Positions 8,445-54,204 of a stretch of 64,000 nucleotides of DNA are shown here, piece by piece (position 1 is the stretch's first letter; each line of letters begins with the position of its first letter). The DNA is from an uncultured Syntrophomonadaceae bacterium (GTDB taxonomy: Bacteria > Bacillota > Dethiobacteria > DTU022), in the NCBI GenBank assembly GCA_964389365.1, contig CAYMDO010000002.1, positions 19,268 through 83,267 on the forward strand, written 5' to 3'. The notes under the pieces were generated by a model, which did not search any database, was not told where the DNA came from, and was given only the letters and a program-made list of their open reading frames with translations. Made by a program: the position numbers and the translations under genes.

Positions 8445-9245
8445 TTAGAGATAGAGGTTGCGCCTGCTGAATACTATTACGCCCAGGCTGTAGAGAACTA
8501 CTGCAACGGCGGCAAAGGGCAGGCAGATACCGAGTAATTCCTGCTTGCCGCTTACGATGGCGGTGGCATCGAAAAGTGAGTAAAGGGTTAGATACTTAAG
8601 CCAATCGTTGTTTCCGCCGATATTTTTTAACATATTGACGATAAAGAAGAAGACCGGGATTCCGCCCCCGAAAGCGAGGGAATACTTCGATTCATTAAAA
8701 ATACAGGAAAAGAAGAAGCAGATTGAACTGACGGCCAGGGTCAGCAAAACTGTTACCAGGTTTAGCTCAGTGAAAGCGGGGATATCCATTTCGCCCGGGA
8801 ACATCGCTTCACTGACAGCGATACCGATCGCCGCGGTTAATACCAGCAGCAGGGAGACGCTTAAAGCCAGGTAAAAGCCCTGGGTTGAAATAATCTTTGC
8901 CCGGCTGTTCGGCGTCGCCAGCAGAAAAGCCATTGACCCCCGGTCCACCAGGACCGCCACCAGGCGGTTGGCCGCAATAATACAGTAGATCAGCGGAAAC
9001 ATGGTCACCAGGAAGCCGTAAAAATAAACAGCCATAAAGGTTGTCAGGCTGGTTACCGGCATGTCATAACCGAAGGCCTCCATCATACCCTGCGGCAGGG
9101 CCTTCACATAAAGGTTCATGGCACCTATCGTTTCCGGGTCGTACATGCCAAGCATGATAACCATGTACATTAAGAGGACGGCAAAGAAGATCAGAAAAAC
9201 CACCCAGTTTGATTTTGCTGTGGCTTTGAAGAGTGAAAAGTTCAC
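8445..9245 (-). CDS. ABC-2 family transporter permease
   Basis: 266 aa with 6 predicted TM helices. Overlaps the upstream ATPase gene by 4 nt (operon). Confidence 0.65.
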   Translation of the reverse strand: MNFSLFKATAKSNWVVFLIFFAVLLMYMVIMLGMYDPETIGAMNLYVKALPQGMMEAFGYDMPVTSLTTFMAVYFYGFLVTMFPLIYCIIAANRLVAVLVDRGSMAFLLATPNSRAKIISTQGFYLALSVSLLLVLTAAIGIAVSEAMFPGEMDIPAFTELNLVTVLLTLAVSSICFFFSCIFNESKYSLAFGGGIPVFFFIVNMLKNIGGNNDWLKYLTLYSLFDATAIVSGKQELLGICLPFAAVAVVLYSLGVIVFSRRNLYL

Positions 9246-10489
9246 CAGGGCATAACCTCCTGTCCGTAATATTTAAGGAAAAGCTGTTCCAAACCCTGGG
9301 TCACAACATCCAGACCGGTTACGCTGCACCGGGCAAGCGCAGCGGCAAACTGGTTGTAATTGTCTTTAACAATCACCTCGACAGTATTTTTACTGGCTTT
9401 TCCGAGCTCGAGGCCGGCGCGGCGCAGGTGCTCAATGTCCTCCGGTACGGCAAGGGAAACCAGGTATGTTTTGCGCTGTGATGATTTCAGCGAGTGGACA
9501 TCTTCCAATGCAACCAGCCGCCCTTCGCGGATAATGCCGGCCCGGTCGCAGGTGCGGTAAGTTTCCTCGAAATTGTGCGAAGACATGAGAAATGTTTTTC
9601 CCCGTTCCTTTTCTTCCAACACCAGCTCGACAAATTCGTTTTGCATCAGCGGATCGAGGCCGCTGGTCGGCTCATCTAATATATAGACAGCAGGATCATG
9701 CATAAAAGCTGTGACAATGCCCAATTTCTGCTTCGTCCCCTTGGACATCTTGCGGATGCGGCCGGCTGGGTCCAGTTCCAGGCGGTCCAGCAGGCTGTCG
9801 CGGCGTTTTTTATTGTTATCGCCCCTTAAAGCAGAAACCAGGTTCAGAAACTGGGTGCCGGTCATCTCGTCAAAAAAGGTTATTTCGCCGGGCAGGTAAC
9901 CGAGGCTTCGCTGGATCAGGTCGGAATCGCGCCAGCAGTCAAGGCCGTTGATTAAGCAGCTTCCTCTGGTTGGCCTGGTAAAACCGAGCAGGTTGCGGAT
10001 AGTTGTTGTTTTGCCGGCCCCGTTAGGTCCGAGAAAACCGAAGGCTTCGCCCTGGCTGACGCTGAAGGTAAGGTCAAATATACCCTTGCCGCTTCGATAT
10101 ATAAATGTCAGCGATTCGATCCTGATCACTTGTTTTTGCCCTATCGGCCCGGCGTTAAGCTTACCCTGCTGTATTTCTGCCAGCGGTTTGATAAACCTGC
10201 CCTGTTCCCAGAGGCCGTCCGCAACCCTGCCGTCCGGGCTTAAATATTTTCCGCAGCCCTCCCGCTTGCCCTTATTTATTTCCCCCACGTAAACGCCGCC
10301 ACTTGGATAGATAACCATGCCCCGGCCGTGGGGTTTTCCTTCCTGCCAGTCTCCTTCATAGCGGGTTCCGTCAGGCAAAATAAGGCTGCCTTTTCCCTGC
10401 GGCATACCGGAAGCGGTTTCTCCGCAGTATTCGCCCCCCAGCCAGGCTATGCACTTTTGCCCTCCGGGCCGGTTTGTTCCAACCATCAA
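9242..10489 (-). CDS. ABC transporter ATP-binding protein with N-terminal MORN-repeat domain
   Basis: Residues ~20-110 carry repeated YEGDWQEGKPHGRG / YVGEINKGKREGCG MORN-type units. Then Walker A GPNGAGKTT, signature MSKGTKQKLG and Walker B ILDEPTSGLD. Confidence 0.8.
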   Translation of the reverse strand: MMVGTNRPGGQKCIAWLGGEYCGETASGMPQGKGSLILPDGTRYEGDWQEGKPHGRGMVIYPSGGVYVGEINKGKREGCGKYLSPDGRVADGLWEQGRFIKPLAEIQQGKLNAGPIGQKQVIRIESLTFIYRSGKGIFDLTFSVSQGEAFGFLGPNGAGKTTTIRNLLGFTRPTRGSCLINGLDCWRDSDLIQRSLGYLPGEITFFDEMTGTQFLNLVSALRGDNNKKRRDSLLDRLELDPAGRIRKMSKGTKQKLGIVTAFMHDPAVYILDEPTSGLDPLMQNEFVELVLEEKERGKTFLMSSHNFEETYRTCDRAGIIREGRLVALEDVHSLKSSQRKTYLVSLAVPEDIEHLRRAGLELGKASKNTVEVIVKDNYNQFAAALARCSVTGLDVVTQGLEQLFLKYYGQEVMPW

Positions 10490-10859
10490 AAGATCCCGCC
10501 TTTCAAGGCGCCCGCTTCTGCCAACCGAAAGCGCTTGTTATTACCAGGCCCGCAGATCAGCTTCTGCTCTGCTTTCAATAGTAATACCCTGTCAATAATA
10601 TCACTAGTTCTCATAATTTAACAGTATTCCGGCAGATGTCTGCTGCTGTTGCTGCCAAAAGTTACTTATTTCAAATCAAGCGAAGTATAGTGTAAAGTTA
10701 TTGCAGGGATTCAGCAGGTAAAGATATTTCTAAGATAGAAAGAGGAAACTCATATTCGCCAATGAACAAATCCCCCCACTTAAGGAGGCAGAGGTTCCTC
10801 ATGGAAATAGTTCGCGTAGTAGAAGAGATAGTCCTTTCAGTAGTTAGCAAAGTATTAAA

Positions 10860-11130
10860 AGTATTAGCAGGAGAGGTCAGTTACAGGAGCTCTGAAACAA
10901 TCCTGAAGGAAAAACTGGACGGACTGCCCTTTTCCAGGTTATATCTGATTGTTACGAACAAAGGAGCGTAATTATCACCACCAATCTGGAGTTTAGCAAG
11001 TGGGTTCAAATCTTCCATGAAGAGCAGGTAACCACTGCGATGAACAATCGCCTGGTCCATCATGGCTATCTCTTAATTTTTGATGGCCAAAGTTACAGAA
11101 TCAAGAATTCGTTGATGAAAGTTGAAGCGT
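10860..11130 (+). pseudogene. istB: IS21-family IstB helper ATPase remnant (frameshifted C-terminal fragment)
   Basis: Frame translation ...YEQRSVIITTNLEFSKWVQIFHEEQVTTAMNNRLVHHGYLLIFDGQSYRIKNSLMKVEA* matches the IstB C-terminus (ITSNLPFSEW...DRLVHH...GESYR). The upstream part is in other frames and no IstA is present. Confidence 0.55.
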
Positions 11131-11490
11131 AAAAATTTCCTAAAGGGTTGCTGTTTTGCTAAATTGCAAAAACAGGGAAAAAGTGATTGTAAAAAACACA
11201 GAAAGAGCCATAACCTCTTAGCAGACGAATAAGTTGATAGATTAGTGACCTATCGTGAAATTTCCTTCAAACAAAGATCATATGTGCGGAAAATTGAATC
11301 TGCCAGAATGCGACTGTTGATGCAACACAAAAGAACCGTCCCCTTGTGTTTTAGTTTTTTTATGGGATTTTGCTTAACGGCGCATTCAAGCTTGCAAGGC
11401 GTTTGCCGTTGGCATAGAATAAATTATGCATTGCCTGGTTCAATGCCGAAATGCTTACCCGGTTACTCTGTTGAAAGGATTTTTGGCGGT

Positions 11491-12453
11491 ATGAAAAAAA
11501 TTGCGGTTATCACCAGCGGCGGAGATGCGCCGGGCATGAACGCGGCAGTACGGGCGGTCACACGTACGGGAATCTATCTCGGTTACCGGGTATGCGGAAT
11601 CCAACGCGGTTTTGCCGGTCTGCTTAACGGCAATCCGGTAATTGATTTCGAACTGGGCTCGGTTGCTGATATTATCCAGCGCGGCGGAACATTTCTTCTT
11701 ACCGCCCGATCGCCGGAAATGTATCAGGCTGAATCACAGGCGAAGGCCGCTGAGCATTTGAAAAACGAAGGCGTTGACTGCCTGATTGTCATTGGGGGCG
11801 AGGGCTCATTTAAGGGGGCGATGACCCTTGAAAAACTGGGGGTACGGACGATTTGTATCCCCGGGACAATTGACAATGATATAAACGGCACCGATCTAAC
11901 AATCGGTTTTGATACGGCTGTCAACACCATTCTTGATGCAATCAACCGGCTGCGCGATACGGCCACCTCGCATGAAAGAGTTTTTCTGCTGGAGGTGATG
12001 GGGCGCCATACCGGTTACCTGGCCCTTTCTGCCGGCCTGGCGGGCGGCGCTGAGTCGATTGTGGTCCCCGAGATTGAGTACAACCTTGCTGAAATTTGCT
12101 GCAGGATCATGCGCGGCATAAAGAGGGACAAAACGCACAGTATTATTGTCGTTGCTGAAGGTGCTGCCAATGTATATGAAATGAACGAAGCAATCAAACA
12201 GCAGATCAATGTTGAAACCAGGGTTACCGTGCTGGGGCACATTCAGCGCGGCGGCAGCCCCAGCGCAGTTGACAGGCTGCTCGGCAGCCGGATGGGGGCT
12301 GCTGCAGTAGAATGGCTGGCTGAAGGCAGGAGCGGCTATTTTACAGCTCTAAAAGGGCAGGATATTGTCCCGGTTTCAATAGACAGCTGCTTTGCCGAAC
12401 GGAAGCCGTTTCCGGAAGATCTATATCGCCTGGCGCTAATCCTATCCCGCTAA
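11491..12453 (+). CDS. pfkA: ATP-dependent 6-phosphofructokinase
   Basis: MKKIAVITSGGDAPGMNAAVRAV N-terminus plus GGEGS and GTIDND motifs. The ORF's upstream extension (11245-11490) is judged non-coding. Confidence 0.9.
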   Translation: MKKIAVITSGGDAPGMNAAVRAVTRTGIYLGYRVCGIQRGFAGLLNGNPVIDFELGSVADIIQRGGTFLLTARSPEMYQAESQAKAAEHLKNEGVDCLIVIGGEGSFKGAMTLEKLGVRTICIPGTIDNDINGTDLTIGFDTAVNTILDAINRLRDTATSHERVFLLEVMGRHTGYLALSAGLAGGAESIVVPEIEYNLAEICCRIMRGIKRDKTHSIIVVAEGAANVYEMNEAIKQQINVETRVTVLGHIQRGGSPSAVDRLLGSRMGAAAVEWLAEGRSGYFTALKGQDIVPVSIDSCFAERKPFPEDLYRLALILSR

Positions 12454-12532: not shown

Positions 12533-14233
12533 ATGAATAAGCCTGAAATTTATTACGAGGTTAAGGCGCAGCGGGGTCCAAGCCTGCGCTGCAAGGGTTG
12601 GAAGCAGGAAACTATCTTAAGGATGCTGGAAAACAACATGGAGAACGCCGAAAAACCTGAAGAGCTGGTTATTTACGGCGGCATCGGTAAGTGCGCGCGC
12701 AACTAGGAATCCTATCATGCCATTGTCAAGGCTTTAAAAGAGCTGGAAAATGATGAAACGCTGGTCATGCAGTCGGGTATGCCGGTGGCTGTATTCAAAA
12801 CACACCGCCTGGCCCCGCGGGTGGTGATGGCCAACACAAATATCATGAAGGCCGACTGGCCCACCTTTTACGACCTGCAGGATAAAAACCTGACTATCTT
12901 TGCCCAGTATACTGCCGGCCCCTGGGAATATATCGGCACACAGGGGGTAATCCAGAGGACCTTTGAGACCCTTTCGGCGGTGGCCAGAAAATGCTACGGA
13001 GATTCGCTGGCCGGTAAAATATTGCTGACTGCCGGCGCCGGAGGGATGGGAGGCAACCAGACCCGGGCGATGACCATGCACGGCGGGGTAGCAATTTTAT
13101 GTGATGTAAACCGTGATATAATCGAGCGCCGGATCAGCAAGAAATTTATTGATGTTATGGCCGGTTCGCTGGAAGAAGCGATCAGTATGGCTCAGGACTA
13201 TGCTGCCAGGAATGAAGCGATCGGCATCGGCCTGGTCGGCAACGCAGCGGACATTTTTGAAGAAGCGCTTAAAAAAGGGTTTAAACCCGATATAGTTACC
13301 GAAATGTGCCCCTGTCATGATCCTTTCTCCTACATTCCTTCCGGGTACAGCCCCCGGGAGGCGGATGAATTGCGGGCCGCAGACCGGAACCTTTACCTGG
13401 AAAAGGCGCGCGAAACGATGATCAGGCAGCTTAAAGCTATGAACCGGTTTTACGGGCTGGGGGTGCCGACTTTTGAATACGGCACCAGCATTCGCAAGGA
13501 ATGCCGTGACGGCGGGATGCCGGAAAAGGAAGCTATGACGATTCCCGGTTTTGTAGCCGAGTACATCAGGCCTCTCTTCTGCGAAGGCCGCGGACCCTTC
13601 CGCTGGATCTGCGTTTCCGGGGAGGCCGAAGATTTGAGGAAGCTTGATGATCTCTGCCTGGAAATGTTTGCCGACGACCTGCTCGTTACCCGCTGGATCA
13701 AGCTGGCCCGCCGGGATATCCCGATTGAGGCGCTGCCGGCCCGGATCTGCTACCTCGGTTTCGGCCAGCGCAAAAGATTTGCCCTGGCGGTCAATGCCCT
13801 GATCCGGACCGGTGAGGTGAAGGGCCCGGTCGCATTCTCCCGGGATAACCTTGATTCCGGCTCCATCGTTAACCCCACCTTCGAATCGGAGAATATGCCG
13901 GACGGCAGCGACCTGATTTCAGACTGGCCCATGTTGAACGGCCTGCTTAATGCCGCGGGGATGTCGGACTTGATCGCCATCCAGGCAAATTATTCGATGG
14001 GGGAAGCGGTTCACACCGGGGTAACGATGATTGCCGACGGAACTGACGAGGCTGATTTACGGCTTTCTGTCTGCATGACAGTCGATTCCGGCATCGGCGT
14101 TGTACGCCATGCCCAGGCCGGTTACGAAACGGCGAAGGAAGTAGCCGATGGCCGGGGCAAGCTGACCGGCGAAAATATAAAAGTGCCGCTCTGGTGGATC
14201 CCGAAAGCCACCTTTGGGCCGCAGGATCTGTAA
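12533..14233 (+). pseudogene. hutU: urocanate hydratase interrupted by an in-frame TAG at 12704-12706, at the position of a conserved Trp
   Basis: Full-length similarity to HutU ([16 protein letters not shown] versus B. subtilis GGIGKAARNWECYHAIV; downstream FCEGRGPFRW etc.). There is an RBS AGGAAGGGG before the ATG at 12533. TAG is a genuine stop elsewhere in this window. Confidence 0.8.
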
Positions 14234-14259
14234 ACACCCGCCGCTCGCAAAATATTTGA

Positions 14260-14966
14260 AGCAGCAGCCGGGCGACCTGTAAAGAGGCAGCAGTAGCCGG
14301 GCTTAACCTTGCTGAATACTGTGACGCCTGGTGTGATGATGGTTACTACAGCGCCGCCGAGTGCGAAAAGATCTTAAATATTGCCCTGGATTATGGACTC
14401 AAACCCAAAATTCACACCGATGCCTATTCTTACATTGGCGGCTCCGACCTGGCGGCTGAAATGCAGATGGTTTCGGCCGATCACCTCAACTACACCCCCC
14501 GGCGGTGATGAAAAAACTGTCGTCTGCAGGAGTAGTCGGGGTACTGATGCCCGCGCTCGATTTCGCCGTCAGGCATCCGCGCCCCTTTGATTACCTGGCT
14601 ATGAAAGAGCAGGGTTTAATTGTGGCGCTCGCCACAAACCACTGTCCCGGCTGTTGGGCCGAGTCGATGCAGTTTGTAATGGCACTGGCCTGCCGTCTCT
14701 ATCGGATGAGCCCGGCAGAGGCGCTGCATGCAGCGACTGCCGGGGCGGCAAAAGCGCTTGGAATCGATAAGGATTACGGCAGCCTGGAAGCCGGTAAATT
14801 TGCGGATTTTCAAATCTGGGATGTTCCAAGTTACGAGCATGTTATCTGCCGCCTCGGCGCCAATGTTGTGGAAAAGGTAATTAAAAAGGGTAGATTGCTG
14901 GTTGACAACAGCATCAGCGAGATTGCCCTCGAGTCCGGTGATGACCGGAACCGCTTAACTGATTGA
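14260..14966 (+). pseudogene. hutI: imidazolonepropionase, C-terminal half only, with a frameshift near the C6 run at 14494-14499
   Basis: Two frames read LAEYCDAWCDDGYYSAAECEKILNIALDYGLKPKIHTD...SADHL and then GVVGVLMPALDF...LATNHCPG...SYEHV, matching HutI residues ~200-410. The N-terminal ~200 codons are absent. Confidence 0.75.
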
Positions 14967-14993
14967 AATCATGGCAGCAAGGAGTAAATAACG

Positions 14994-16519
14994 ATGACTG
15001 TAACCATCGATGGGAAAAGCCTTACCCTGGAACAGGTTGTCAGGGTGGCCAGGTATAACGAAGATGTTGAACTGGCAGAAACAGCTTATGACTGCATCAA
15101 TCGCTCGCGGGAGCTGGTTGAGCGGATCGTGGCGGAAAAGCGTTCGGTTTACGGTGTTAATACCGGTTTTGGCCTGCTCAGCAATGTTTCTATCACCGAC
15201 GAGGAGATCAATTAGCTCCAGTACAACCTGGTTGTCAGCTGCGTGGCTGGTGTTGGCGAACCGTTCCCGGAAGAAGTGGTACGGGCGATGCTTTTTTTGC
15301 GTTCCAACTCGCTGTCCTCCGGCTGCTCAGGGGTCAGGCCGATCATTGTTGAAACGATGCTGGCCATGCTCAGCAAGGGAGTCCACCCCGTGGTGCCGCA
15401 AAAAGGTTCAGTCGGCGCCAGCGGTGATTTAGCCCCCCTGGCGCACCTGGCGCTGGTGCTCATCGGACGCGGTGAAGCCCTGTATAAAGGGCGTTTGGTG
15501 CCGGGCGGAGAGGCTATGAAACAGGCCGGGATCGAACCCGTTGTGTTAAAGGCGAAGGAAGGCCTTTCCCTTTGCAACGGAACCCAGGCGATGACCGCAG
15601 CCGGCGCTCTCGCTGTTTACGATGCTTTAAAGATGGCACGCTACGCGGATCTCTTTGGCGCGCTTTCGGCAGAGGCACTGGAGGCAGTGTTGATGGCGTA
15701 CGATCCAAAAATCCATGCTGTCAGGCCTCACCCGGGCCAGATCGAAACCGCCGCCAACCTCAGGGAAATGTTAAGGGGCAGTGAGATCCTGGCCCACCCA
15801 TCGTCAAGCCGGGTTCAGGATGCCTACTCGCTGCGCTGCATGCCCCAGGTGCACGGGGCTTCCAAGGATGCCATCGACTATGTGAAGCAGGTAATCGAAA
15901 GAGAAATTAATTCGGTTACCGATAACCCGCTGGTCTTCGCCGATACCGGCGAGGTGCTTTCCGGGGGCAATTTTCACGGCCAGCCGGTAGCCCTGGCCCT
16001 CGATTTCTGGCTATTGCCCTCGCCGAGCTGGCCAATATTTCGCAGCTCAGGGTTGAAAGGCTGACCAACCCGGCGCTGAGCATGGGGCTGCCTGCTTTCC
16101 TGATCGAAAAAAGCGGGTTGAACGACGGCTTCATGGTTGCCCAGTATACCGCCGCCGCCTTAGTCAGCGAAAACAAGATTCTGGCCCATCCGGCAAGCGT
16201 GGATTCCATTCCCACATCGGCTGACCAGGAAGATCACGTCAGCATGGGTACCACGGCGGCCCGCAAATGCCGCGAAGTGCTGGAGAACCTGCGCTATGTC
16301 CTGGCTATCGAAGCTATCTGTGCCTGCCAGGGGATCGACCTCAGAAAGAAAAAGCCGTCACCCGTGCTGCAAAAAGCCTGCCGTATAATCAGGGAGAGGG
16401 TCAGCTTTATGGCGGCGGACCGGGAAATGAGCAAAGATTTTGAGGCGGTGGTAGCGTTGATTAAGGATGATGCCTTTAATATTGCAAATTTGCTGGGCGG
16501 GCTTGCGGGTAAGGTGTGA
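14994..16519 (+). pseudogene. hutH: histidine ammonia-lyase with an in-frame TAG at 15213-15215 (Gln position) and a 1-nt deletion frameshift near 16006
   Basis: Three ORF pieces cover full-length HutH, including the MIO motif [22 protein letters not shown] aligns to canonical EEQLEQLQLNLV. The frame switch is at [16 protein letters not shown]. Confidence 0.8.
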
Positions 16520-19191: not shown

Positions 19192-19554
19192 ATGCCCTGC
19201 CGGGAAGAAGGGCTGCCAGCGATGAACAATCTAAAATATATACACCAAAACCCGGAACTGGACCGGTTTATTCACGAACCGGCCCGGCTGCAAATTCTCA
19301 GCTACCTTACCACAAGCGGCTCTGAAGTTGTTTTTACCGAACTTGGCGGTAAGCTGGGTTTATCTGCCGGCAACTTGTCCGTCCAATTGAAGAGGCTGGA
19401 AAAAGTCGGGTATTTATCAATAAATAAAACATTTAAAGACAACAGGCCCTTAACCAGTATTATCCTGACTCATGCTGGCAAAAAGGCTCTTAAAAGCTAT
19501 ATCCGGGAACTTGAAAAGGTGATCGGCAGCCTGAAAAACGCTATGATTGACTGA
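19192..19554 (+). CDS. winged-helix transcriptional regulator
   Basis: 120 aa with HTH-like segment LGLSAGNLSVQLKRLEKVGYL. It immediately precedes the ABC operon. Confidence 0.5.
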   Translation: MPCREEGLPAMNNLKYIHQNPELDRFIHEPARLQILSYLTTSGSEVVFTELGGKLGLSAGNLSVQLKRLEKVGYLSINKTFKDNRPLTSIILTHAGKKALKSYIRELEKVIGSLKNAMID

Positions 19555-19670: not shown

Positions 19671-21014
19671 GTGAATATGGATGACTACGGAAATACGCCT
19701 AAAGGAGAAAAGCAGACTATACCGTGGATGAAAGGGACCTACAGCGGGCAGTTACGGCAGGGTATACCCTCGGGCATCGGCCGCCTGCAGCTGCCCGACG
19801 GAGCCGGTTATGCAGGAGAGTGGCTTAACGGAAAGCCTCACGGCGAAGGCACAATATACTATGCGAGCGGTGCCTCCTACCAGGGTGAATTTTGGAATGG
19901 CAGGCAGCATGGTTACGGCACCTATACCAACCCTGGCGGGTCGATGACCAGGGGTTTCTGGGAAGAAGGCCGGTTTGTCAGGGCCAAAGACCTTTACAAG
20001 CCAGCCCCACAGGTTACTAAATCTGCAGGGGTGCATGGCCGCTCGGCGTCCGCGGAGGCGGATCGCTTTATTGATACCGGCTTTCAAGGCCGGGACGCAG
20101 AAAGGAACAGACGGTTTTCCGAAGCCTTCGACCGGGCCGGAACAGGCATGACAAGAGGGCTGCCGGCGATTGCTGTCAGTGGTTTAAGCCACTGGTACGG
20201 GAAGTTGGAGGCTGTAAAGAATATCAGTTTCGAGGTTTTCCCGGGCACAATTCTTGGCTTTCTTGGGCCGAACGGTGCCGGTAAATCTACTACTATCAAA
20301 GTTCTTACCGGGCAGCTGCCCCTTATGGGCGGCGCGGCACAGATCCTCGGACGGCCAGTAGGGCGTGATGACCCTCATATCCAATCGCAGATTGGAGTTT
20401 CTTTTGAAGAGAAAAATCTCTACCTGGAGATGACGGCGCTTGAGAACCTGGATTTCTTTGCTTCCCTTTTCGGCATTAGAAATCCCGGATCCCTTCAGGC
20501 CCTGCAGCGGGTCGGACTGGCCGACCGGGCCAGGGACCGCGTTGCCAACTACTCCAAGGGTATGCGGCAGCGCCTGATGATTGCCCGGGCTTTTATAAAC
20601 AAGCCGACAGTGCTTTTCCTTGACGAACCGACCGACGGGCTTGACCCGGTTACCGCTACCGCGATCCGCAAAACAATTAAGGAAGAAGCCGATCGGGGGG
20701 CGGCTGTGCTGCTGACCACCCATAATATGTTTGAAGCCGATGAACTTTCCGACAGGGTTGCGTTTATCAATGAGGGTCAGATTGTGGCCCTCGATACGGC
20801 GGAAAATCTGAAGATAAAATACGGCAAGAGAGCGGTAAGGGTGAGGCTGCGCGACGGCAGCGGGGTTCGCGAAGAAGAGCTGCCCCTGGACGGGGAACAA
20901 TCATCCTCCCGCCTCAGCAAGCTGGCTGCCTCGCCTGACCTGTTGACCATTCACACTGAAGAAGCGACCCTGGAAGCGATCTTCATCCACCTGACCGGCA
21001 GGGGGCTGGTATGA
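19671..21014 (+). CDS. ABC transporter ATP-binding protein with N-terminal MORN-repeat domain (paralog of 9242..10489)
   Basis: N-terminal repeats YAGEWLNGKPHGEG / YQGEFWNGRQHGYG; then GPNGAGKST, signature YSKGMRQRL and Walker B LFLDEPTDGLD. Confidence 0.8.
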   Translation: MNMDDYGNTPKGEKQTIPWMKGTYSGQLRQGIPSGIGRLQLPDGAGYAGEWLNGKPHGEGTIYYASGASYQGEFWNGRQHGYGTYTNPGGSMTRGFWEEGRFVRAKDLYKPAPQVTKSAGVHGRSASAEADRFIDTGFQGRDAERNRRFSEAFDRAGTGMTRGLPAIAVSGLSHWYGKLEAVKNISFEVFPGTILGFLGPNGAGKSTTIKVLTGQLPLMGGAAQILGRPVGRDDPHIQSQIGVSFEEKNLYLEMTALENLDFFASLFGIRNPGSLQALQRVGLADRARDRVANYSKGMRQRLMIARAFINKPTVLFLDEPTDGLDPVTATAIRKTIKEEADRGAAVLLTTHNMFEADELSDRVAFINEGQIVALDTAENLKIKYGKRAVRVRLRDGSGVREEELPLDGEQSSSRLSKLAASPDLLTIHTEEATLEAIFIHLTGRGLV

Positions 21015-22258
21015 TGGATAAGACAGTTACTGCCGGCAATCTGCTGGGTGCGGTTCTTAAAAAAGATGCCCGTGTCTACAGCCGGAATGCTATTTATCTT
21101 TTTCTAACTATCTTGAGCATAGTTTTTTTCGTGATCATTTTTTGGATTGTGCCCGATACTGTTGATGAAGATTTGCCCTTTGCCATCACACCCCCGCTTT
21201 CCGTGATCTTCGGGGAAAGCAAAGATGCGTTGTTAGCCGCCGGTATTCCGCTTGAGAATGCTGACAGGTTGGCGGAGCTTGAATCCGGCTTTAAAGAGGA
21301 AGGCCTTCAGATTATCGAGTTTGCCAGCGAAGATGAGCTTAAAAAAGCAATTTCCGGTGAAATGCTTGTATATAAAACCGCAGAAGGCAGCTATATTAAC
21401 ATTGATCCTGAAGGCAATCAAAGGAGGCCGAAAGGGGCCGACAGAGTTAAAATAGGGGTGGGTATTTCATTTACACCGGCCTTTTTCAGCGAGGTAATAA
21501 TGCAGCGAAAGCCACGGGTAACCGTATTTGCAGATGCAGCGGTTACCGATGAATTACGGGGGGTCATGCAGGGTTTTGTGCGCGAAATGGCATTTATGAT
21601 GGCCGGAAAAGAGCTGCCGGTAGAGCTGCCCCCCGATGATACCATTATCCTGGGGCGCGACCGGGTGGGTGAACAGATTTCGGTGCGGGCCAGGATGCGG
21701 CCGCTGATCGCGTTCTTTATTATGATGATGGAAACTTTTGCCCTTGCCTCGCTGATTTCCAATGAAGTGCTGCAGCGCACTGTTACGGCTTTGCTGGTTA
21801 CTCCGCTCAGGGTAAGTCATTTCCTGCTGGCCAAAACTATTTTCGGCACGATCCTGGCCATGGGGCAGGCTTTGATAGTTTTAGCCCTGGTCGGCGCTTT
21901 CACAGTTTCCAACTGGTTGCTGCTGCTGCTGATTGTTTTTATGGGCGCGCTATTATTTACCGCGGTGGCTATGCTGGTCGGCTCTGCCGGAAAAGATTTT
22001 ATCGGGCAGTTAATGTTCAGCATGCTTTTCCTGATTCCAATGATGATACCAGCTTTTGCCGTTCTTTTCCCCGGCTCTGTTGCAACCTGGGTCAGGGTCC
22101 TGCCCAGTTACCCGATCGTTCAGCTGCTTCATGATGTAACGGTTTATGAAGCCCTCTGGGCCGATTCAGTCGCACTGCTGGGCTATGCCGCTCTCTGGGT
22201 GCTGGCAATATTTGCAGCGGGCTTGATCGTTTTAAAGAGGAAGGTGGCAACGTTATGA
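21011..22258 (+). CDS. ABC-2 family transporter permease
   Basis: 415 aa with an N-terminal TM helix, a large extracytoplasmic loop and C-terminal TM helices. 4-nt overlap with the ATPase gene. Confidence 0.65.
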   Translation: MMDKTVTAGNLLGAVLKKDARVYSRNAIYLFLTILSIVFFVIIFWIVPDTVDEDLPFAITPPLSVIFGESKDALLAAGIPLENADRLAELESGFKEEGLQIIEFASEDELKKAISGEMLVYKTAEGSYINIDPEGNQRRPKGADRVKIGVGISFTPAFFSEVIMQRKPRVTVFADAAVTDELRGVMQGFVREMAFMMAGKELPVELPPDDTIILGRDRVGEQISVRARMRPLIAFFIMMMETFALASLISNEVLQRTVTALLVTPLRVSHFLLAKTIFGTILAMGQALIVLALVGAFTVSNWLLLLLIVFMGALLFTAVAMLVGSAGKDFIGQLMFSMLFLIPMMIPAFAVLFPGSVATWVRVLPSYPIVQLLHDVTVYEALWADSVALLGYAALWVLAIFAAGLIVLKRKVATL

Positions 22259-23304
22259 ACCTGAAACGAATATTTCACATTTTGGGCAAAGATTTCTCTG
22301 TCGGGCCGCGTAAGCCATTTTTTATCTGGGCCCTGGTAATGCCTTTTGCATTGACACTGCTTTTTCAATTTGCATTCGGTTCGCTCTTTGAGCCGAAGCC
22401 GCGCTTAGGCCTGGTTGACCTGGGCAACTCGGTCTTGATCACGCAAGCCGAGGCGCTCGAAGGCTTTGAAGTTGTCATCTTTACCGATCCGGAAGAGCTT
22501 CTCGAGCAGGTCGAAAATCATGATTTTGATGCCGGCCTGATTCTTCCTGACGGTTTTGACGAGGCTGTAAAAAAAGGCGAAAAACCGCTGCTCCAATTTT
22601 ACATAAGCGGCGAAAGCCTTGCTTCGAACCGGATCATCATTGCCGTGACTGCCGTGGATATGGTGCGCGGGCTTGAAGGCGCTGAGCCGCCGGTTGAGGT
22701 GAACACAGTTTACCTGGGAGAACCGGGTCTGCCTATTTCCATCCGGCTAGTCCCTCTAATTGTCTTCTATGCCCTGGTGATGGCCGGCATCTGGGTGCCC
22801 AGCGCCAGCATGGTCGAAGAGAAGGAAAACGGCACTCTGACAGCAATGATTGTTACCGCAGCGAAAGCCAGCGAAATACTGGTTGCCAAGTGGCTGCTTG
22901 GGTTTCTTTTTGCCTTTTTCCTGGCAGTCGCCACACTGCTGCTGAACAGTGCCTTCGGTCAGCGGCCGCTTGAGGTTATAGCCGTGATTGCTCTTGCTGC
23001 CGCCCTCACTGCCGAGATCGGCCTGATTATCGGCATAGTCTCCAAAACGGCAACGATGCTGTTTACCCTGATCAAAAGCCTGGGGATCTTTCTATTTGTT
23101 CCGGTTATTTTTTATATTTTTCCTGACTGGCCGCAGTGGATCGCAAAATTTTTCCCGCTCTATTGGATTATAAAACCAATCTGGGAAGTATCGATTATGG
23201 GGCAGCAGCTAAGCACTGTCTGGTTTGAAATGCTGATTGCCCTGGCTATAACTATCAGCCTTGTTCCGGTAGTCGTGCTGCTGAAAAAGAAACTCTTTGC
23301 CTGA
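22255..23304 (+). CDS. ABC-2 family transporter permease (second subunit)
   Basis: 349 aa with the same topology. 4-nt overlap with the preceding gene. Confidence 0.65.
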   Translation: MNLKRIFHILGKDFSVGPRKPFFIWALVMPFALTLLFQFAFGSLFEPKPRLGLVDLGNSVLITQAEALEGFEVVIFTDPEELLEQVENHDFDAGLILPDGFDEAVKKGEKPLLQFYISGESLASNRIIIAVTAVDMVRGLEGAEPPVEVNTVYLGEPGLPISIRLVPLIVFYALVMAGIWVPSASMVEEKENGTLTAMIVTAAKASEILVAKWLLGFLFAFFLAVATLLLNSAFGQRPLEVIAVIALAAALTAEIGLIIGIVSKTATMLFTLIKSLGIFLFVPVIFYIFPDWPQWIAKFFPLYWIIKPIWEVSIMGQQLSTVWFEMLIALAITISLVPVVVLLKKKLFA

Positions 23305-44517: not shown

Positions 44518-45657
44518 TTAATCACCTGCCGTATCATGCAGGATGTTGGACAGCGCCGGTTCATACCACTGTAAGTAAAAACGGAATTCGATGGGCAATC
44601 CCGGCAGGTAAGACATAAACCGCTGGATCTTTGCGCTTCCTGTCAACCGCGGTGTAAGCAGGGCAGGCAATTGATCGGTAAAATCTCCGGCGAAGTAAAA
44701 GCGTTTTGCTTCACCGGGAGGGGTATAGCTGATCATGGCCGGGAAACGCTCGGGAAGGCTGCGCCTATCCAGATCTGCGCGGGCCTGATCCGGCAAAGGT
44801 ATTTCATAGTAGGCCAAAACTTCCGCTCCAGGAAGAGGTTCCAACACCTCTACCCAATAGAGATAGGGAATGTTTTGGGAAGTTCTACCTTTAAAGGGGT
44901 GGGCTGTGTAGTTGATTACCGGCCATGGTCCGGTTAGCTCTTCACCGGAAACAACAACAAGGTCGCTGCGCCAGCTGAAAGAGGGCACTTCCTCGCGCAC
45001 GAAAACCATGCCCGGACCGCGAAGGTCCCACTCGAGTCCGTAGATCTTTTCATATAACTGCTTTAGCCAGAAAGCCGCGTCATTTAGGTCGCTGTAATAA
45101 CGCCCCAGCCATCCGGTGTAGCTGACAGCAAATACAGCCTGCAGCCTTAATGAAGCATCCGGATCAAGATAGGTAGGGTAGCCGAAGATGTTATGTTCAC
45201 CGATGATCCGTTTATTTTCCTTTGTTGAAAAATATTCTATTGCTTCTACCTCGTTTAGGTCAAAGCCGCCGTAGAGCAGCTTGATATTTTGTATTTCAAA
45301 AGGCAGCTGCGCCTCGTAAAGATCAAAGCCCCCGGGATAGTCATAGATCCCGTAACTGTCTGCCAGGTAGAGCAGGTCGGCATCTGCCAGCTCTGAAAGA
45401 GTCAGGGTTTGCTTCTCACCGGTTGCCGGATGGAAGCCTAAATAATCATGGTGGAAATTGTAGAAATCACCGCCGGGTTTACTAAAACGCCTGTGTTCGG
45501 CGACCCAGAATATGGCACGGTGCTCGCGAAAGGTGGTATCGGGAACCGTTTTGTTAACAACAAGCAACTTAATTTCCTGCCTGGGGCTAAGTGGCCAATG
45601 CACCAGCCAGCTTCCGGACAGCAATATAATGATTAGCACCAGGTGCCAGCGTTTCAT
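44518..45657 (-). CDS. membrane-anchored hypothetical protein (379 aa)
   Basis: N-terminal signal-anchor MKRWHLVLIIILLSGSWLV. No recognised domain. Confidence 0.5.
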   Translation of the reverse strand: MKRWHLVLIIILLSGSWLVHWPLSPRQEIKLLVVNKTVPDTTFREHRAIFWVAEHRRFSKPGGDFYNFHHDYLGFHPATGEKQTLTLSELADADLLYLADSYGIYDYPGGFDLYEAQLPFEIQNIKLLYGGFDLNEVEAIEYFSTKENKRIIGEHNIFGYPTYLDPDASLRLQAVFAVSYTGWLGRYYSDLNDAAFWLKQLYEKIYGLEWDLRGPGMVFVREEVPSFSWRSDLVVVSGEELTGPWPVINYTAHPFKGRTSQNIPYLYWVEVLEPLPGAEVLAYYEIPLPDQARADLDRRSLPERFPAMISYTPPGEAKRFYFAGDFTDQLPALLTPRLTGSAKIQRFMSYLPGLPIEFRFYLQWYEPALSNILHDTAGD

Positions 45658-45679
45658 TAGAGGTTTCCTTTCGTTCGGC

Positions 45680-47947
45680 TCACGGAATTGTCAGTAAGTA
45701 ATCGGCTATCAGGTCATAGCTTCTTTTCAGGCGGAACTGAAAGAGCGGCTCTTCCCATCGATTCCAGTTAAAAGCTGTAATCCCGGTTTTAAATTGGTCA
45801 CCGCGTCGCGGGAAAAAGTCAAGCACGGCAGGCCATGAAAGATCATTGCTGTTTGCTGATTGTTCGCCCTGATAGTAAGTAAGGACGTAAAAATTAAAGC
45901 CGCTACCAGTTTCAATACTTAATTGATCCCTGGCCGGCAGATCATTATAATTACGGAGGTCTCTAATAACTGAACCCCCTGAAGGATCGGCAATATTCAG
46001 GAGCATCCAGGGCAGGCGGATTAAAATCCGACCATCAGGCAAGGATTCCCAGTGAGCAAGTGAGTTGTAATCTTCAGCCTCAGGATTAAAGTTACCGTAA
46101 GTGAGCGCACTCTCGTTAGCGAAAAGGGCAGGGAAATAAAGGCCTTCCAAAGTAGTTCGTTCACGGTTTACAAGGGTATTAATCGTTTCGAAATCAGCTA
46201 ATGATGAAGATTGGGGATTAAAGTTGAGTAGCCCCCTGTTATAGGAGGGAATGGCAACGAGAAGCGCTTCCCCGGGAGTTTTTAGATCAATTAGAAACTG
46301 GACCGGGCCTGGAAGTTCAGGCAGCCCGGAGAAGGGAAGCTTAAATTCACCGGCATCAGGTATTCCGCTGTTGATCCCTATAGCCAGCCCAACGATTTCC
46401 CAGGGGAACGTACCGCTCTGCCTGAATGTCGCCTGGTCTAAGGTGATTGCCAGGTAAAGAAAAGCTTCGTCGGCACCTGCTTCAAGCTTTTTAATCATCC
46501 CGAAAGTGCTTTCATGATCATCAGGAGGTGCAAATGCTTTATTATCAAAAGCTAACTGCCAGTCGCTTAATAGTTCTTCCAGGGGGCGGGCCAGGGGTTC
46601 AACGGCCAGTATCCCGTAATTTTGTTCGGGGCACATCGTGTTTTGCCAGAGAACCTGTCTTTCCCAGGGAACCATAAAAGGTTCAGTGTTCCAGGTTTTC
46701 TTAGCCCATTCATCGCTCCACTCAAAGATCAGCCCGCCGGCGTAGCCTTCATCAATGATGGAGCGCATCATCCGAACAACCATCGTGCCCTGATCGACTT
46801 CGCTCAAACCACCATGATTTAACCCTTCAGGGTTGAAATGAGCGGTGTTAAGAGAAGTGGATATGCCAAACTCGGCTATGAGCGCCGGGTAAGGGGGGTG
46901 GATAGCCATAAACTGATTAAGGTAACCCTTGTAACGAAAAACACCCTCATCGTCCCTAAAAGAGACAAAAGCCGGTTCATTGTTCATTAAATCAGGATAA
47001 TTTGGATAGACATGATAGGCGCCGAAAAACCCTGCATAATTGGATGGTCCGGAGATAAAAATATTTGGATCAACAACCTCCCGGTCATTATAGCCTGGCG
47101 TTCCGTCTGCTTCCCATTCGGTCAGGTGTGTAAGAGGATCCAGGGTAGGCCAACTGACAAAACCTACCGGGTATTGACGTTCATACTGAGAATCACAGTA
47201 AGCGGCAGCATAATTAGTCATGTCTGCCAGCCAGACTTCGGTTGCCGAAGCACCATTTCTGGTTTGCACGAAGTCGCCCTGAAAAAGAGTAAGGTCAGGA
47301 TTAGCCTTATTGGTTGCTGCAACTTCTTCCGGTTCCAGTTCGCGACCGATCAGCAGTCCCAGCAGGAAAGGAGAAACATCAACAGAGTATTTACCATAAG
47401 CCCGGTATGGTCTGGCTGGAATATCGGCATTGCCGTGGAGGGCATCAATAACCAGTTTTATCTCCTGCCGGTATTCTTCCGCATAATCCTGGTTATAAAA
47501 ATTCAGGTCAGGCACTTCATCATCAGGCCAAATCTCCTGGAAAAGCCAAAGAGTTTCATTTTCGGGATTTCTGTTATATTCTGCCAGGACGGCGTAAAAA
47601 GCGGGGTCAAGCAGGGTGTAAATTCTGATCGTATTGGCATTCATAGCGGCTATTTCTTCGATCCAGCGGGCGTATAATTCACGATCTGCCGGAAAATCAG
47701 TATACCAGCGACCGGGCAACGAGGTGCCGATGTTGACGCCTTTAACGATTAATTCCTGCCACTGATGCCCGTTGTAAATTTCAAAATATCTTTCGGCGGT
47801 TCGGGCAGAAATACAGCGGTTTCCAACAGTGGCGCATGAATTTGAAGCCTGGTTTTCCCCGTTGGTGCAGCCGGTCGGCAGGCTTAACGCCAATAATAGA
47901 GAACTTATTAAGATTACAGGGAGTAAAACAGCTCTATTAATGAGCAA
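45680..47947 (-). CDS. large lipoprotein (755 aa) with N-terminal TIM-barrel glycoside-hydrolase-like region
   Basis: Lipobox-like LSLPTGC. GVNIGTSLPGRWYTDF...NANTIRIYT is reminiscent of GH-A clan glycosidases. The C-terminal ~350 aa are unassigned. Confidence 0.5.
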   Translation of the reverse strand: MLINRAVLLPVILISSLLLALSLPTGCTNGENQASNSCATVGNRCISARTAERYFEIYNGHQWQELIVKGVNIGTSLPGRWYTDFPADRELYARWIEEIAAMNANTIRIYTLLDPAFYAVLAEYNRNPENETLWLFQEIWPDDEVPDLNFYNQDYAEEYRQEIKLVIDALHGNADIPARPYRAYGKYSVDVSPFLLGLLIGRELEPEEVAATNKANPDLTLFQGDFVQTRNGASATEVWLADMTNYAAAYCDSQYERQYPVGFVSWPTLDPLTHLTEWEADGTPGYNDREVVDPNIFISGPSNYAGFFGAYHVYPNYPDLMNNEPAFVSFRDDEGVFRYKGYLNQFMAIHPPYPALIAEFGISTSLNTAHFNPEGLNHGGLSEVDQGTMVVRMMRSIIDEGYAGGLIFEWSDEWAKKTWNTEPFMVPWERQVLWQNTMCPEQNYGILAVEPLARPLEELLSDWQLAFDNKAFAPPDDHESTFGMIKKLEAGADEAFLYLAITLDQATFRQSGTFPWEIVGLAIGINSGIPDAGEFKLPFSGLPELPGPVQFLIDLKTPGEALLVAIPSYNRGLLNFNPQSSSLADFETINTLVNRERTTLEGLYFPALFANESALTYGNFNPEAEDYNSLAHWESLPDGRILIRLPWMLLNIADPSGGSVIRDLRNYNDLPARDQLSIETGSGFNFYVLTYYQGEQSANSNDLSWPAVLDFFPRRGDQFKTGITAFNWNRWEEPLFQFRLKRSYDLIADYLLTIP

Positions 47948-51193: not shown

Positions 51194-51269
51194 GGGGCGA
51201 ATAGCTCAGCGGGGGAGCACCTGCCTTACAAGCAGGGGGCCGTAGGTTCAAATCCTACTTCGCCCACCA
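51194..51269 (+). tRNA. tRNA-Val (anticodon TAC), CCA encoded
   Basis: GGGGCGAAUAGCUCAGCGGGGGAGCA ... anticodon loop CUUACAA ... GGUUCAAAUCC ... CCA. Confidence 0.85.
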
Positions 51270-51285
51270 TTGAAACACGATAAAT

Positions 51286-51320
51286 AAAGGGCTTTAGGGC
51301 CCTTTATTTATTTTTTATTT
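51286..51320 (+). terminator. rho-independent terminator after tRNA-Val
   Basis: AAAGGGC-tttagg-GCCCTTT hairpin then a T-rich run. Confidence 0.6.
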
Positions 51321-51321
51321 G

Positions 51322-51560
51322 GTGCGCCCGGCATGGGCGTTAGCTTGGCGGTGAAAGTCCGCTGTGGGCTTGGCAGTGGGAACCACTAGCTGACGGCAAG
51401 GGTGTCCGCCGTGAGGCGGAATCTGAAGGAAGCCTAAGGCAAAATCCCGGCCCGATGAACAAGAACCGCATACAAGGCTGAACAGGGGTGGACGAGTTTG
51501 CCAAACAAAACGAAGTCCGACACTGCCCGGCGGGTTGCTTGATTATGCTATAAAAGTCAA
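51322..51560 (+). mobile_element. group II intron 5' fragment (domain I start), apparently truncated
   Basis: Begins GTGCGCCCGGCATGGGCGTTAGC immediately after the terminator T-run. This is near-identical in pattern to the Ll.LtrB 5' end GTGCGCCCAGATAGGGTGTTAAG. No domain V or intact RT ORF was found downstream. Confidence 0.5.
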
Positions 51561-51919
51561 AGCTACTGTCAGAAAAAAAGTGTTGTTTGAAATTGACCTC
51601 TTAATGGAAGGCGCTTTTAAAAGCGAAACCCTGGGTAAAGAGGATTTTAAAAATATGGTTGAAATAAATGGTTTAATTACTTTATCCCATATTTCTCGCG
51701 CTTATATTATTAGTGTAACAGCGCAATCAGGAATCAATCCGCCGGTCAGAGTGCCAATGCTAAATATCAATAAGCTGATTGGGCAGAAGAAAACGAATTA
51801 CAAGAGCTAAGATAAGTTTTTACATGGGCCGGCGATTGCTGATTGCATGCAAAGTTAAGCATAAAGAAACCGGGCACGACCAGACTCTTAAGTATTCGGC
51901 ATCGGTGAACATCTCCTCT

Positions 51920-52496: not shown

Positions 52497-53417
52497 ATGA
52501 AAACCAGTTTTGCGCTGCTGTTGCTGCTTATCTTGCTGCCGGTTGTTATGGCAGGCTGCAATAGTGCAGAAAAACCGGATATTTATGCTGACGAACCGAT
52601 CAGAATCGTAACCACAATCTTCCCCCTGGCCGATTTGATCGGAAAGTTGGGCGGCGACCAGGTTGAAGTCAGCTACCTGCTTCCAAGCGGGGCCAGCCCT
52701 CATACTTTCGAACCAACAACCGAGCAGGCTCGCCTGGTTGCCAAAGCGAGGCTGTTTGTTTATATCGGGGCCGGCCTCGATAATTGGGCGGTAGAATTGA
52801 CGAAAACCGGAAACAAAGATCTGGCAGTCATGGAACTGGCCGGTCTTGTAACCCTAGCTGAAGGTTATGGCTGTAACAATCAGGATCATGACCACGAAGC
52901 GGGAGCCGATCCCCATTTTTGGCTTGACCCCATCCTGGTCAGCAGTCAGCTGCTGCCGGGTATTTATGACCAGCTGTGCCTGATTGCGCCTGAGAAACGG
53001 CCTTTATTCCGTGAAAACCTGATCAACATGCAAGCGGAGCTGACCGTTTTGAACCGGGAAATTGAAGTTCAGCTTGGAGCCTCTGGCAGGAAGGATTTTA
53101 TTGCATTCCATTCTGCCTGGCACTATTTTGCTGCCCGATACGGATTAAATGAGCTGGCGGTGATAGCCTCTTTTCCGGGGCAGGAGCCCTCGGCCGGCTG
53201 GATTGCTGAACTGATCAATATCGTCAGGGAAAATGATGTGGGGGCAATCCTGGTTGAACCGCAGTTTTCTCAACAACTGGCCACCGCTGTTGCTGCTGAA
53301 ACGGGGATCAAGGTGCTAACAGTGGATCCGCTCGGTGGGGAGGACCTGCCCGGCCGGGATTCATATCTAAACCTGATGCGCTATAACATGAAAATATTCA
53401 GTGAAGCCCTGCAGTAA
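52497..53417 (+). CDS. metal (Zn/Mn) ABC transporter substrate-binding lipoprotein, ZnuA/TroA family
   Basis: Lipobox LPVVMAGC and a His/Asp-rich loop QDHDHEAGADPHFWLDP. Confidence 0.75.
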   Translation: MKTSFALLLLLILLPVVMAGCNSAEKPDIYADEPIRIVTTIFPLADLIGKLGGDQVEVSYLLPSGASPHTFEPTTEQARLVAKARLFVYIGAGLDNWAVELTKTGNKDLAVMELAGLVTLAEGYGCNNQDHDHEAGADPHFWLDPILVSSQLLPGIYDQLCLIAPEKRPLFRENLINMQAELTVLNREIEVQLGASGRKDFIAFHSAWHYFAARYGLNELAVIASFPGQEPSAGWIAELINIVRENDVGAILVEPQFSQQLATAVAAETGIKVLTVDPLGGEDLPGRDSYLNLMRYNMKIFSEALQ

Positions 53418-53436
53418 AAAAAGAGAGGTTTTATTT

Positions 53437-54204
53437 GTGGAGCCGGTGATCAGCAGTCAAAACCTGGCGGTCAGGCTGGGGGGCAAAAAGGTCCTTGAGG
53501 ATATATCATTTGTTGTTAATCCGGGGCAGTTGGCAGGAATCATCGGCCCGAACGGGGCCGGGAAAACAACCCTGCTCAGGGCGATCCTGGGCCTGGTTCC
53601 GATCAGCGCCGGAGAGCTGGCAGTGCTGGGGTATCCGGCAGGCCGGATCAACAGCCAGCGGGGCAGGATTGGTTATATGCCTCAGCGCCTGTTGTTTGAA
53701 AGGCATTTCCCCCTTTCGGTTGGCGATGCGGTGGCCGCCGGGTTATTAACCCGTTCAACAATTATGAAACGGATCGGGGACATTGATCAAAAGGTAATGG
53801 CAGCCCTGACTTTTGTTGGCATGGAACAGTACCGCCTGTGCCCGTTCCAGGAACTTTCAGGCGGCCAGCAGCAGCGGGTTTTATTGGCCCGCTCTTTGGC
53901 ACGGAAACCGGAGCTGCTGCTACTGGATGAACCCAATGCCGGCCTTGATTTTCCATCCCAGAAGAAGTTTATTGACCTGCTGCAGCAGCTGCGTCAACGG
54001 CATAACCTGACAGTAATAATGGTTTCGCATGACCTGGTATCGGTTGCTGCGATTGCTGACTCACTGATTTGCATAGATCGCCGGATGCACCTTCACGGCA
54101 AACCCGGCGAGGTGCTGCACAGCCATGAACTGCTTGATGCTTATCGTTGTGAATTTGACTACTTAAGCATTGCTTTTCGGCAGGGGGAGGGAAAAAATGA
54201 GTGA
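53437..54204 (+). CDS. metal ABC transporter ATP-binding protein (ZnuC-like)
   Basis: GPNGAGKTT, LSGGQQQRV and LLLDEPNAGLD motifs. GTG start after an AGAGAGG RBS. Confidence 0.8.
   Translation: MEPVISSQNLAVRLGGKKVLEDISFVVNPGQLAGIIGPNGAGKTTLLRAILGLVPISAGELAVLGYPAGRINSQRGRIGYMPQRLLFERHFPLSVGDAVAAGLLTRSTIMKRIGDIDQKVMAALTFVGMEQYRLCPFQELSGGQQQRVLLARSLARKPELLLLDEPNAGLDFPSQKKFIDLLQQLRQRHNLTVIMVSHDLVSVAAIADSLICIDRRMHLHGKPGEVLHSHELLDAYRCEFDYLSIAFRQGEGKNE

Follow-up and report, generated by a model that had tools for sequence, protein, structure and literature searches.

The described systems closest to the transporters considered here are the multidrug efflux pump Rv1217c-Rv1218c of Mycobacterium tuberculosis, NosFY of the NosDFY copper maturation system, and the DrrA (daunorubicin-resistance) subfamily of ATP-binding cassette (ABC) ATPases. 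Accessory domains on ABC ATPases, a main route of transporter regulation, are known from MetN (C2), MalK (regulatory domain), OpuA (CBS), and Rv1747 (FHA). These are mostly C-terminal and of fixed geometry, and none of them is a MORN domain. Here we analyze two ABC ATPase genes from an uncultured Syntrophomonadaceae bacterium, located in a 64-kb stretch of contig CAYMDO010000002.1 (assembly GCA_964389365.1, positions 19,268 to 83,267), which is hereafter called the window. Each gene encodes an N-terminal MORN-repeat module joined to the ATPase by a variable tether, an arrangement that is not among the characterized accessory types but resembles them in principle, in that a non-catalytic fused domain would modulate or localize a transporter. 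Judging by identity and domain architecture, each gene almost certainly encodes a MORN-tagged ATPase subunit, and the two subunits belong to separate ABC-2 exporters of conventional type. The type 1 exporter (copy 1) consists of the ATPase and one 266-aa permease, and the type 2 exporter (copy 2) of the ATPase and two permeases.

The fusion proposed by an earlier sequence-only reading was confirmed by the open reading frames (ORFs), by Pfam matches to both domains, and by an AlphaFold2 model of the module. In both proteins the N-terminal region passes the MORN profile (PF02493), scoring 52.8 bits in copy 1 and 56.0 bits in copy 2 against a gathering cutoff of 22.5, and the ABC_tran profile (PF00005, cutoff 25) gives 86.6 and 107.3 bits, respectively. 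The catalytic set is complete in both copies: Walker A GPNGAGKT/S, the signature M/YSKG(T/M)xQ, Walker B (I)LDEP, and the H-loop SSH/TTH. In copy 1, GPNGAGKT is found at residue 153, ILDEP at 269, and SSH at 302, and residues K159, S248-K249-G250, D271, E272, and H304 are invariant in 27 sequences. With these motifs preserved, the core should be capable of ATP-driven export in the same way as relatives that lack MORN. Assignment to ABC-2 exporters, also suggested by the sequence-only reading, is borne out by the adjoining co-oriented permease genes of families PF12679 (type 1) and PF12698 (both type 2 permeases); ABC-2 permeases follow the ATPase in all related loci that reach far enough downstream.

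The closest solved bacterial relative of the copy 1 ATPase is Rv1218c (E 7e-52 over residues 121-408, 39-40% identity, root-mean-square deviation (rmsd) 1.6-2.3 Å; PDB 8k1m-8k1p). The two systems share the ATPase, including its C-terminal part, and an ABC-2-type membrane partner, but Rv1218c lacks a MORN module. Further solved relatives of the copy 1 nucleotide-binding domain (NBD) are NosF, TM_1403, and the ABCA NBDs, with MetNI among the fold matches. NosF, also without a MORN module, aligns over approximately 300 residues (TM-score 0.72-0.80 on the target). The small C-terminal α/β domain of copy 1, modeled in residues 339-405, is covered by both the Rv1218c sequence match and the fold alignments of that length to NosF and TM_1403. 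The type 1 permease matches PF12679, which we take to be the NosY-type family, and no NosD, NosL, or nosZ gene is found among the called neighbors in the window or in the related loci L001-L008. For both copies the best NCBIfam match is TIGR01188 (DrrA), yet the scores of 181.1 and 236.5 are under the cutoff of 312.45, so by the NCBI criterion neither is a DrrA member. Matches to GldA, NodI, LptB, PmtA, and other named NCBIfam equivalogs are all far under their cutoffs. No characterized ortholog was identified; for the window permeases, no NCBIfam family scores above its cutoff, and solved structures include no detectable sequence relative. No solved chain spans a MORN module and an NBD together.

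The AlphaFold2 model of copy 1, built from an 89-sequence alignment (mean predicted local distance difference test (pLDDT) 84.7, predicted TM-score (pTM) 0.59), contains nine β-strands in residues 10-101 (pLDDT ~90), with the β-hairpins stacked into a long antiparallel sheet, as is typical of MORN repeats. In the MORN pattern Y-x-G-x-W...G-x-x-x-G-x-G, the glycines and tryptophan are invariant and the tyrosine nearly so, as observed in alignments of 29 and 136 sequences; outside these generic positions only two prolines (P29 and P52) are invariant. A Zn/Cys site was considered and rejected, as the cysteines of copy 1 are not conserved. Structurally, the module is matched most tightly by two small adaptors, MORN2 and MORN4 (rmsd 1.5-1.6 Å), of which MORN4 was solved with Myo3a. 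Like TbMORN1, these adaptors are free-standing eukaryotic scaffold proteins, whereas the window module is bacterial and tethered to an ABC ATPase. The modules are basic: 96% have a net positive charge, with a mean of +5.2 per 100 aa, compared to -3.6 for generic bacterial MORN segments from the same scans. The p-values for this shift are inflated by the relatedness of the sequences; the shift is nonetheless systematic. The linker is poorly conserved and ranges from 7 to 21 aa in type 1 and from 8 to 100 aa in type 2. This variability, together with the low pTM, indicates a tether rather than a rigid lever. Long type 2 linkers have in common a short motif, DRF(F/S)E(T/A)FD, in an otherwise variable, low-complexity sequence, where it may act as a short linear motif or form a helix. 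In the 57-aa linker of copy 2 this motif takes the form RFSEAFD (residues 146-152, ~20112-20132).

When trees are built from NBDs only, the MORN-bearing proteins of each type group into a single clade, apart from a large outgroup that lacks MORN. NBD identity between the two types is 36%; the modules share 54-56% identity within one type and 50% across the two. Thus, one type of module was grafted onto two pre-existing exporters. The sequence-only reading had interpreted the second copy as a sign of conserved architecture. The architecture is indeed conserved, being carried by approximately 57 (type 1) and 78 (type 2) protein clusters at 90% identity, but the second copy stems from reuse of one module on two ATPase subfamilies; a fused gene was not duplicated.

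Five proteins that lack MORN but fall inside the MORN clades were compared with their own DNA. Three (L006/L007, L170, and L171) are real losses in otherwise intact genes or operons, and such intact MORN-less operons among carriers mark the module as accessory. For the other two, the NCBI start was set at the canonical NBD start, with the module in frame upstream and no intervening stop codon: L008 (5689-6885, GCA_033549065.1), called as 294 aa and provided with a good ribosome-binding site, and L169 (1144-2388, GCA_051748565.1), called as 295 aa. The claim that close MORN-less relatives prove frequent loss was rejected accordingly. Automated gene calling can hide MORN fusions by resetting the start in this way, and the fusion is therefore under-counted in protein databases.

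All fusion clusters come from metagenomes or metagenome-assembled genomes (MAGs) and have generic names only; at NCBI the proteins are called 'ATP-binding cassette domain-containing protein'. We scanned 185,579 species genomes and the Joint Genome Institute (JGI) metagenomes with the module consensus. All 14 loci that match the whole module at 58% identity or higher are MORN-NBD fusions, whereas none of 146 weaker MORN matches contains an NBD. The counts are lower bounds, since exact 8-residue seeds were required. A profile search with the module against 1.84 billion representatives is uninformative on architecture, as the best 150 matches are all large multi-repeat MORN proteins. The carriers are labeled Syntrophomonadaceae, Bacillota, or Dethiobacteria, and several come from soda-lake sediment samples. 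The fusion is rare and restricted to a lineage of soda-lake anaerobes, a real variant of a well-known kind of transporter. This agrees with the earlier expectation that it is not a common, functionally annotated family; the carrier labels do not extend to Clostridia in general.

The fusion had been regarded as undescribed, but MORN-ABC ATPase fusions in Dethiobacteria/Syntrophomonadaceae MAGs were noted in a 2021 preprint on MORN-heliorhodopsins of haloalkaliphilic Dethiobacteria (bioRxiv 10.1101/2021.02.01.429150). There they are mentioned in passing as possible partners of MORN-heliorhodopsin, without the split into two ATPase subfamilies, the linkers, the gains and losses, the charge, or the structure. 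That single mention was never followed by functional characterization. The earlier notice and the confinement to uncultured organisms limit the significance of the system. Its value is that of a simple bacterial system in which to address the long-standing question of whether MORN repeats bind to membranes or to proteins, with natural controls provided by orthologous operons with and without the module and by the same module on two unrelated ATPases.

Each ATPase has thus gained, at its N-terminus, a 103-aa MORN module of the same kind on a disordered tether of variable length. We tentatively propose that this module would serve to dock the ATPase on the cytoplasmic side of the membrane. Because the module is consistently basic, the most likely target would be the negatively charged inner leaflet beside the permease; docking would keep the soluble ATPase attached there and might tune the pump or determine its location. 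This mechanism is plausible, although we stop short of calling it probable. The view of the sequence-only reading that MORN repeats usually bind membranes or lipids is contested: TbMORN1 shows no membrane or vesicle binding and forms antiparallel dimers (Sajko et al., PMC7725318), and junctophilin MORN repeats hold a CaV1.1 channel peptide in a groove (PMC8916002). Both observations favor a close rival to docking, possible but somewhat doubtful, in which the module is a protein-protein adaptor that clusters or regulates the exporter, either by MORN-MORN pairing between the two ATPases of a pump or between neighboring pumps, or by accepting a helix or peptide in its groove. Apicomplexan MORN1 likewise dimerizes in antiparallel fashion, and these repeats have been termed protein-protein interaction modules (PMC7725318). 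The close structural match to MORN2 and MORN4, the near-interchangeable modules on two different pumps, and the co-occurrence of several further MORN fusions in the lineage point in the same direction. However, no partner was found. The invariant residues of the module offer nothing specific beyond the two prolines, and comparison of related loci revealed no conserved neighbor gene that could encode one. An adaptor role also leaves the uniform positive charge unexplained. TbMORN1 is described as negatively charged (PMC7725318), in contrast to the window modules.

Other readings are less likely than docking or an adaptor role. The module could be a ligand or substrate sensor that allosterically gates ATP hydrolysis, much as MetN or MalK is regulated by a domain at its C-terminus. 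There is precedent for such domains on ABC ATPases, and MetNI is among the fold matches, but a poorly conserved linker of 7 to 100 aa is unsuited to a fixed allosteric lever, the relative orientation of the domains is not confidently predicted (pTM 0.59), and comparison of modules revealed no pocket-like conserved residues; we consider sensing unlikely. Still less credible is coupling of the exporters to MORN-tagged heliorhodopsin, by which light would control efflux. This speculation stems from the same preprint, which reports both fusions co-occurring in Dethiobacteria MAGs and draws possible contacts between them. The window, however, contains neither a heliorhodopsin gene nor a third MORN-bearing ORF, neither module-seeded scan (genomes or metagenomes) gave a MORN module followed by transmembrane segments, and the main text of the published mSphere version (PMC8612252) never mentions ABC. 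A broader version, similarly improbable, is that both exporters, heliorhodopsin, and a PknB-type kinase use their basic MORN modules as an interaction code specific to the lineage, by which a sensor and pumps would be assembled at the inner face of the membrane so that light or kinase signaling gates ABC export. If true, this would amount to a new mode of ABC transporter regulation, and interest in the system would rise if the module proved to link pumps to a sensor. Finally, the fusion might be an artifact of read-through, mis-assembly, or merging of frameshifted genes, as the histidine-utilization operon of the window does hold frameshifted genes. An artifact is already refuted, and has virtually no credence, because the same in-frame fusion recurs across approximately 135 protein clusters and all 14 of the independently assembled loci; moreover, the annotation errors that we observed hide a module rather than create one. 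Tethered docking at the membrane remains our preferred, if tentative, explanation.

Features of the two MORN-ATPase loci (window coordinates)
Feature	Coordinates	Strand	Details
Type 1 permease, ABC2_membrane_2	8445..9245	-	266 aa; Pfam 44.6 bits
Type 1 MORN-ATPase gene (copy 1)	9242..10486	-	414 aa; ATG at 10486, stop 9242-9244
Copy 1, C-terminal α/β domain	9245..9472	-	aa 339-414; AlphaFold2 secondary structure
Copy 1, NBD	9473..10132	-	aa 119-338; ABC_tran
Copy 1, flexible linker	10133..10183	-	aa 102-118; pLDDT ~55
Copy 1, MORN β-sheet module	10184..10459	-	aa 10-101; entire module aa 1-103
HTH_34 winged-helix regulator, upstream of copy 2	19192..19554	+	Pfam 74.1 bits
Type 2 MORN-ATPase gene (copy 2)	19677..21014	+	445 aa
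Copy 2, MORN module	~19677-19982	+	
Copy 2, linker	~19983-20159	+	
Copy 2, NBD	20160-21011	+	
Type 2 permease a, ABC2_membrane_3	21011..22258	+	415 aa; Pfam 65.3 bits; ATGA overlap with ATPase
Type 2 permease b, ABC2_membrane_3	22255..23304	+	349 aa; Pfam 104.7 bits; ATGA overlap with permease a

The ORF of copy 1 extends over 9242-10489 on the minus strand; the shorter start is likely the true one, because type 1 homologs are 411-414 aa long and the corresponding ATG is preceded by a ribosome-binding site, AAAGGCGGG. The start of the type 1 permease overlaps the stop of the ATPase by 4 nt (GTGA), and both type 2 permease junctions are 4-nt overlaps as well. Copy 2 exactly matches a catalogued protein of the same length, P0121. 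The order of ATPase and permease genes is kept in every related locus of sufficient extent for both types, whereas the remaining neighbor genes differ between loci. In L001/L002 the type 1 and type 2 systems are approximately 8 kb apart, similar to the window. Among the related loci, the HTH_34 regulator is found only in the window and in the MORN-less locus L006, and thus it is not conserved with the fusion.

The region of about 1 kb between the start of copy 1 and a phosphofructokinase domain (10487-11497) contains no convincing gene and no Rfam match; the phosphofructokinase profile begins at residue 85 of ORF 11245-12453. Rfam, promoter, and terminator scans near copy 1 gave nothing informative. 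In relatives, the gap upstream of the type 1 gene ranges from ~65 bp (L001) to ~480 bp (L004). In two lineages a convergent gene with Dockerin_1 and NamZ (exo-N-acetylmuramidase-like) domains lies just downstream of the type 1 cassette (L001/L002, 12116-13552; L004/L005, 12036-13460). It is absent from the window, and the adjacency may be simple synteny. The type 1 ATPase gene on a soda-lake metagenome contig (L094, 3358-4229) is split by a frameshift within the NBD. Some relatives of the type 1 ATPase are long: P0061 (447 aa) and P0062-P0064, P0074, and P0082 (488-549 aa). In P0061 an internal NBD segment (LPGEIAFIDSMSGTEF...) is present twice, which suggests internal duplication or an assembly artifact.

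Other kinds of MORN protein abound in this lineage. The same Syntrophomonadaceae MAGs also encode several multi-repeat MORN proteins (L016, L018, L030, L033, L043, and L085) that are membrane-anchored or resemble lipoproteins, and in some of these the low-complexity spacers are very acidic. The ATPase of a Znu-type importer in the window (53401-54204) has no MORN module.

Elsewhere in the window, the histidine-utilization genes (12767-16519) are fragmented. Urocanase is missing roughly the first 71 positions of its profile, an imidazolonepropionase-like amidohydrolase is open in its C-terminal third only, and histidine ammonia-lyase is divided among three ORFs that match profile positions 1-63, 76-333, and 360-466; these genes are either pseudogenes or products of assembly indels. 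Two large minus-strand ORFs of 379 and 755 aa (44518-47947), without a Pfam match at E 1e-5, adjoin genes for a HEAT-repeat protein and a family-2 glycosyltransferase. A group II intron D1-D4 RNA match (51195-51588, 89.2 bits) is located ~140 nt downstream of a tRNA gene.
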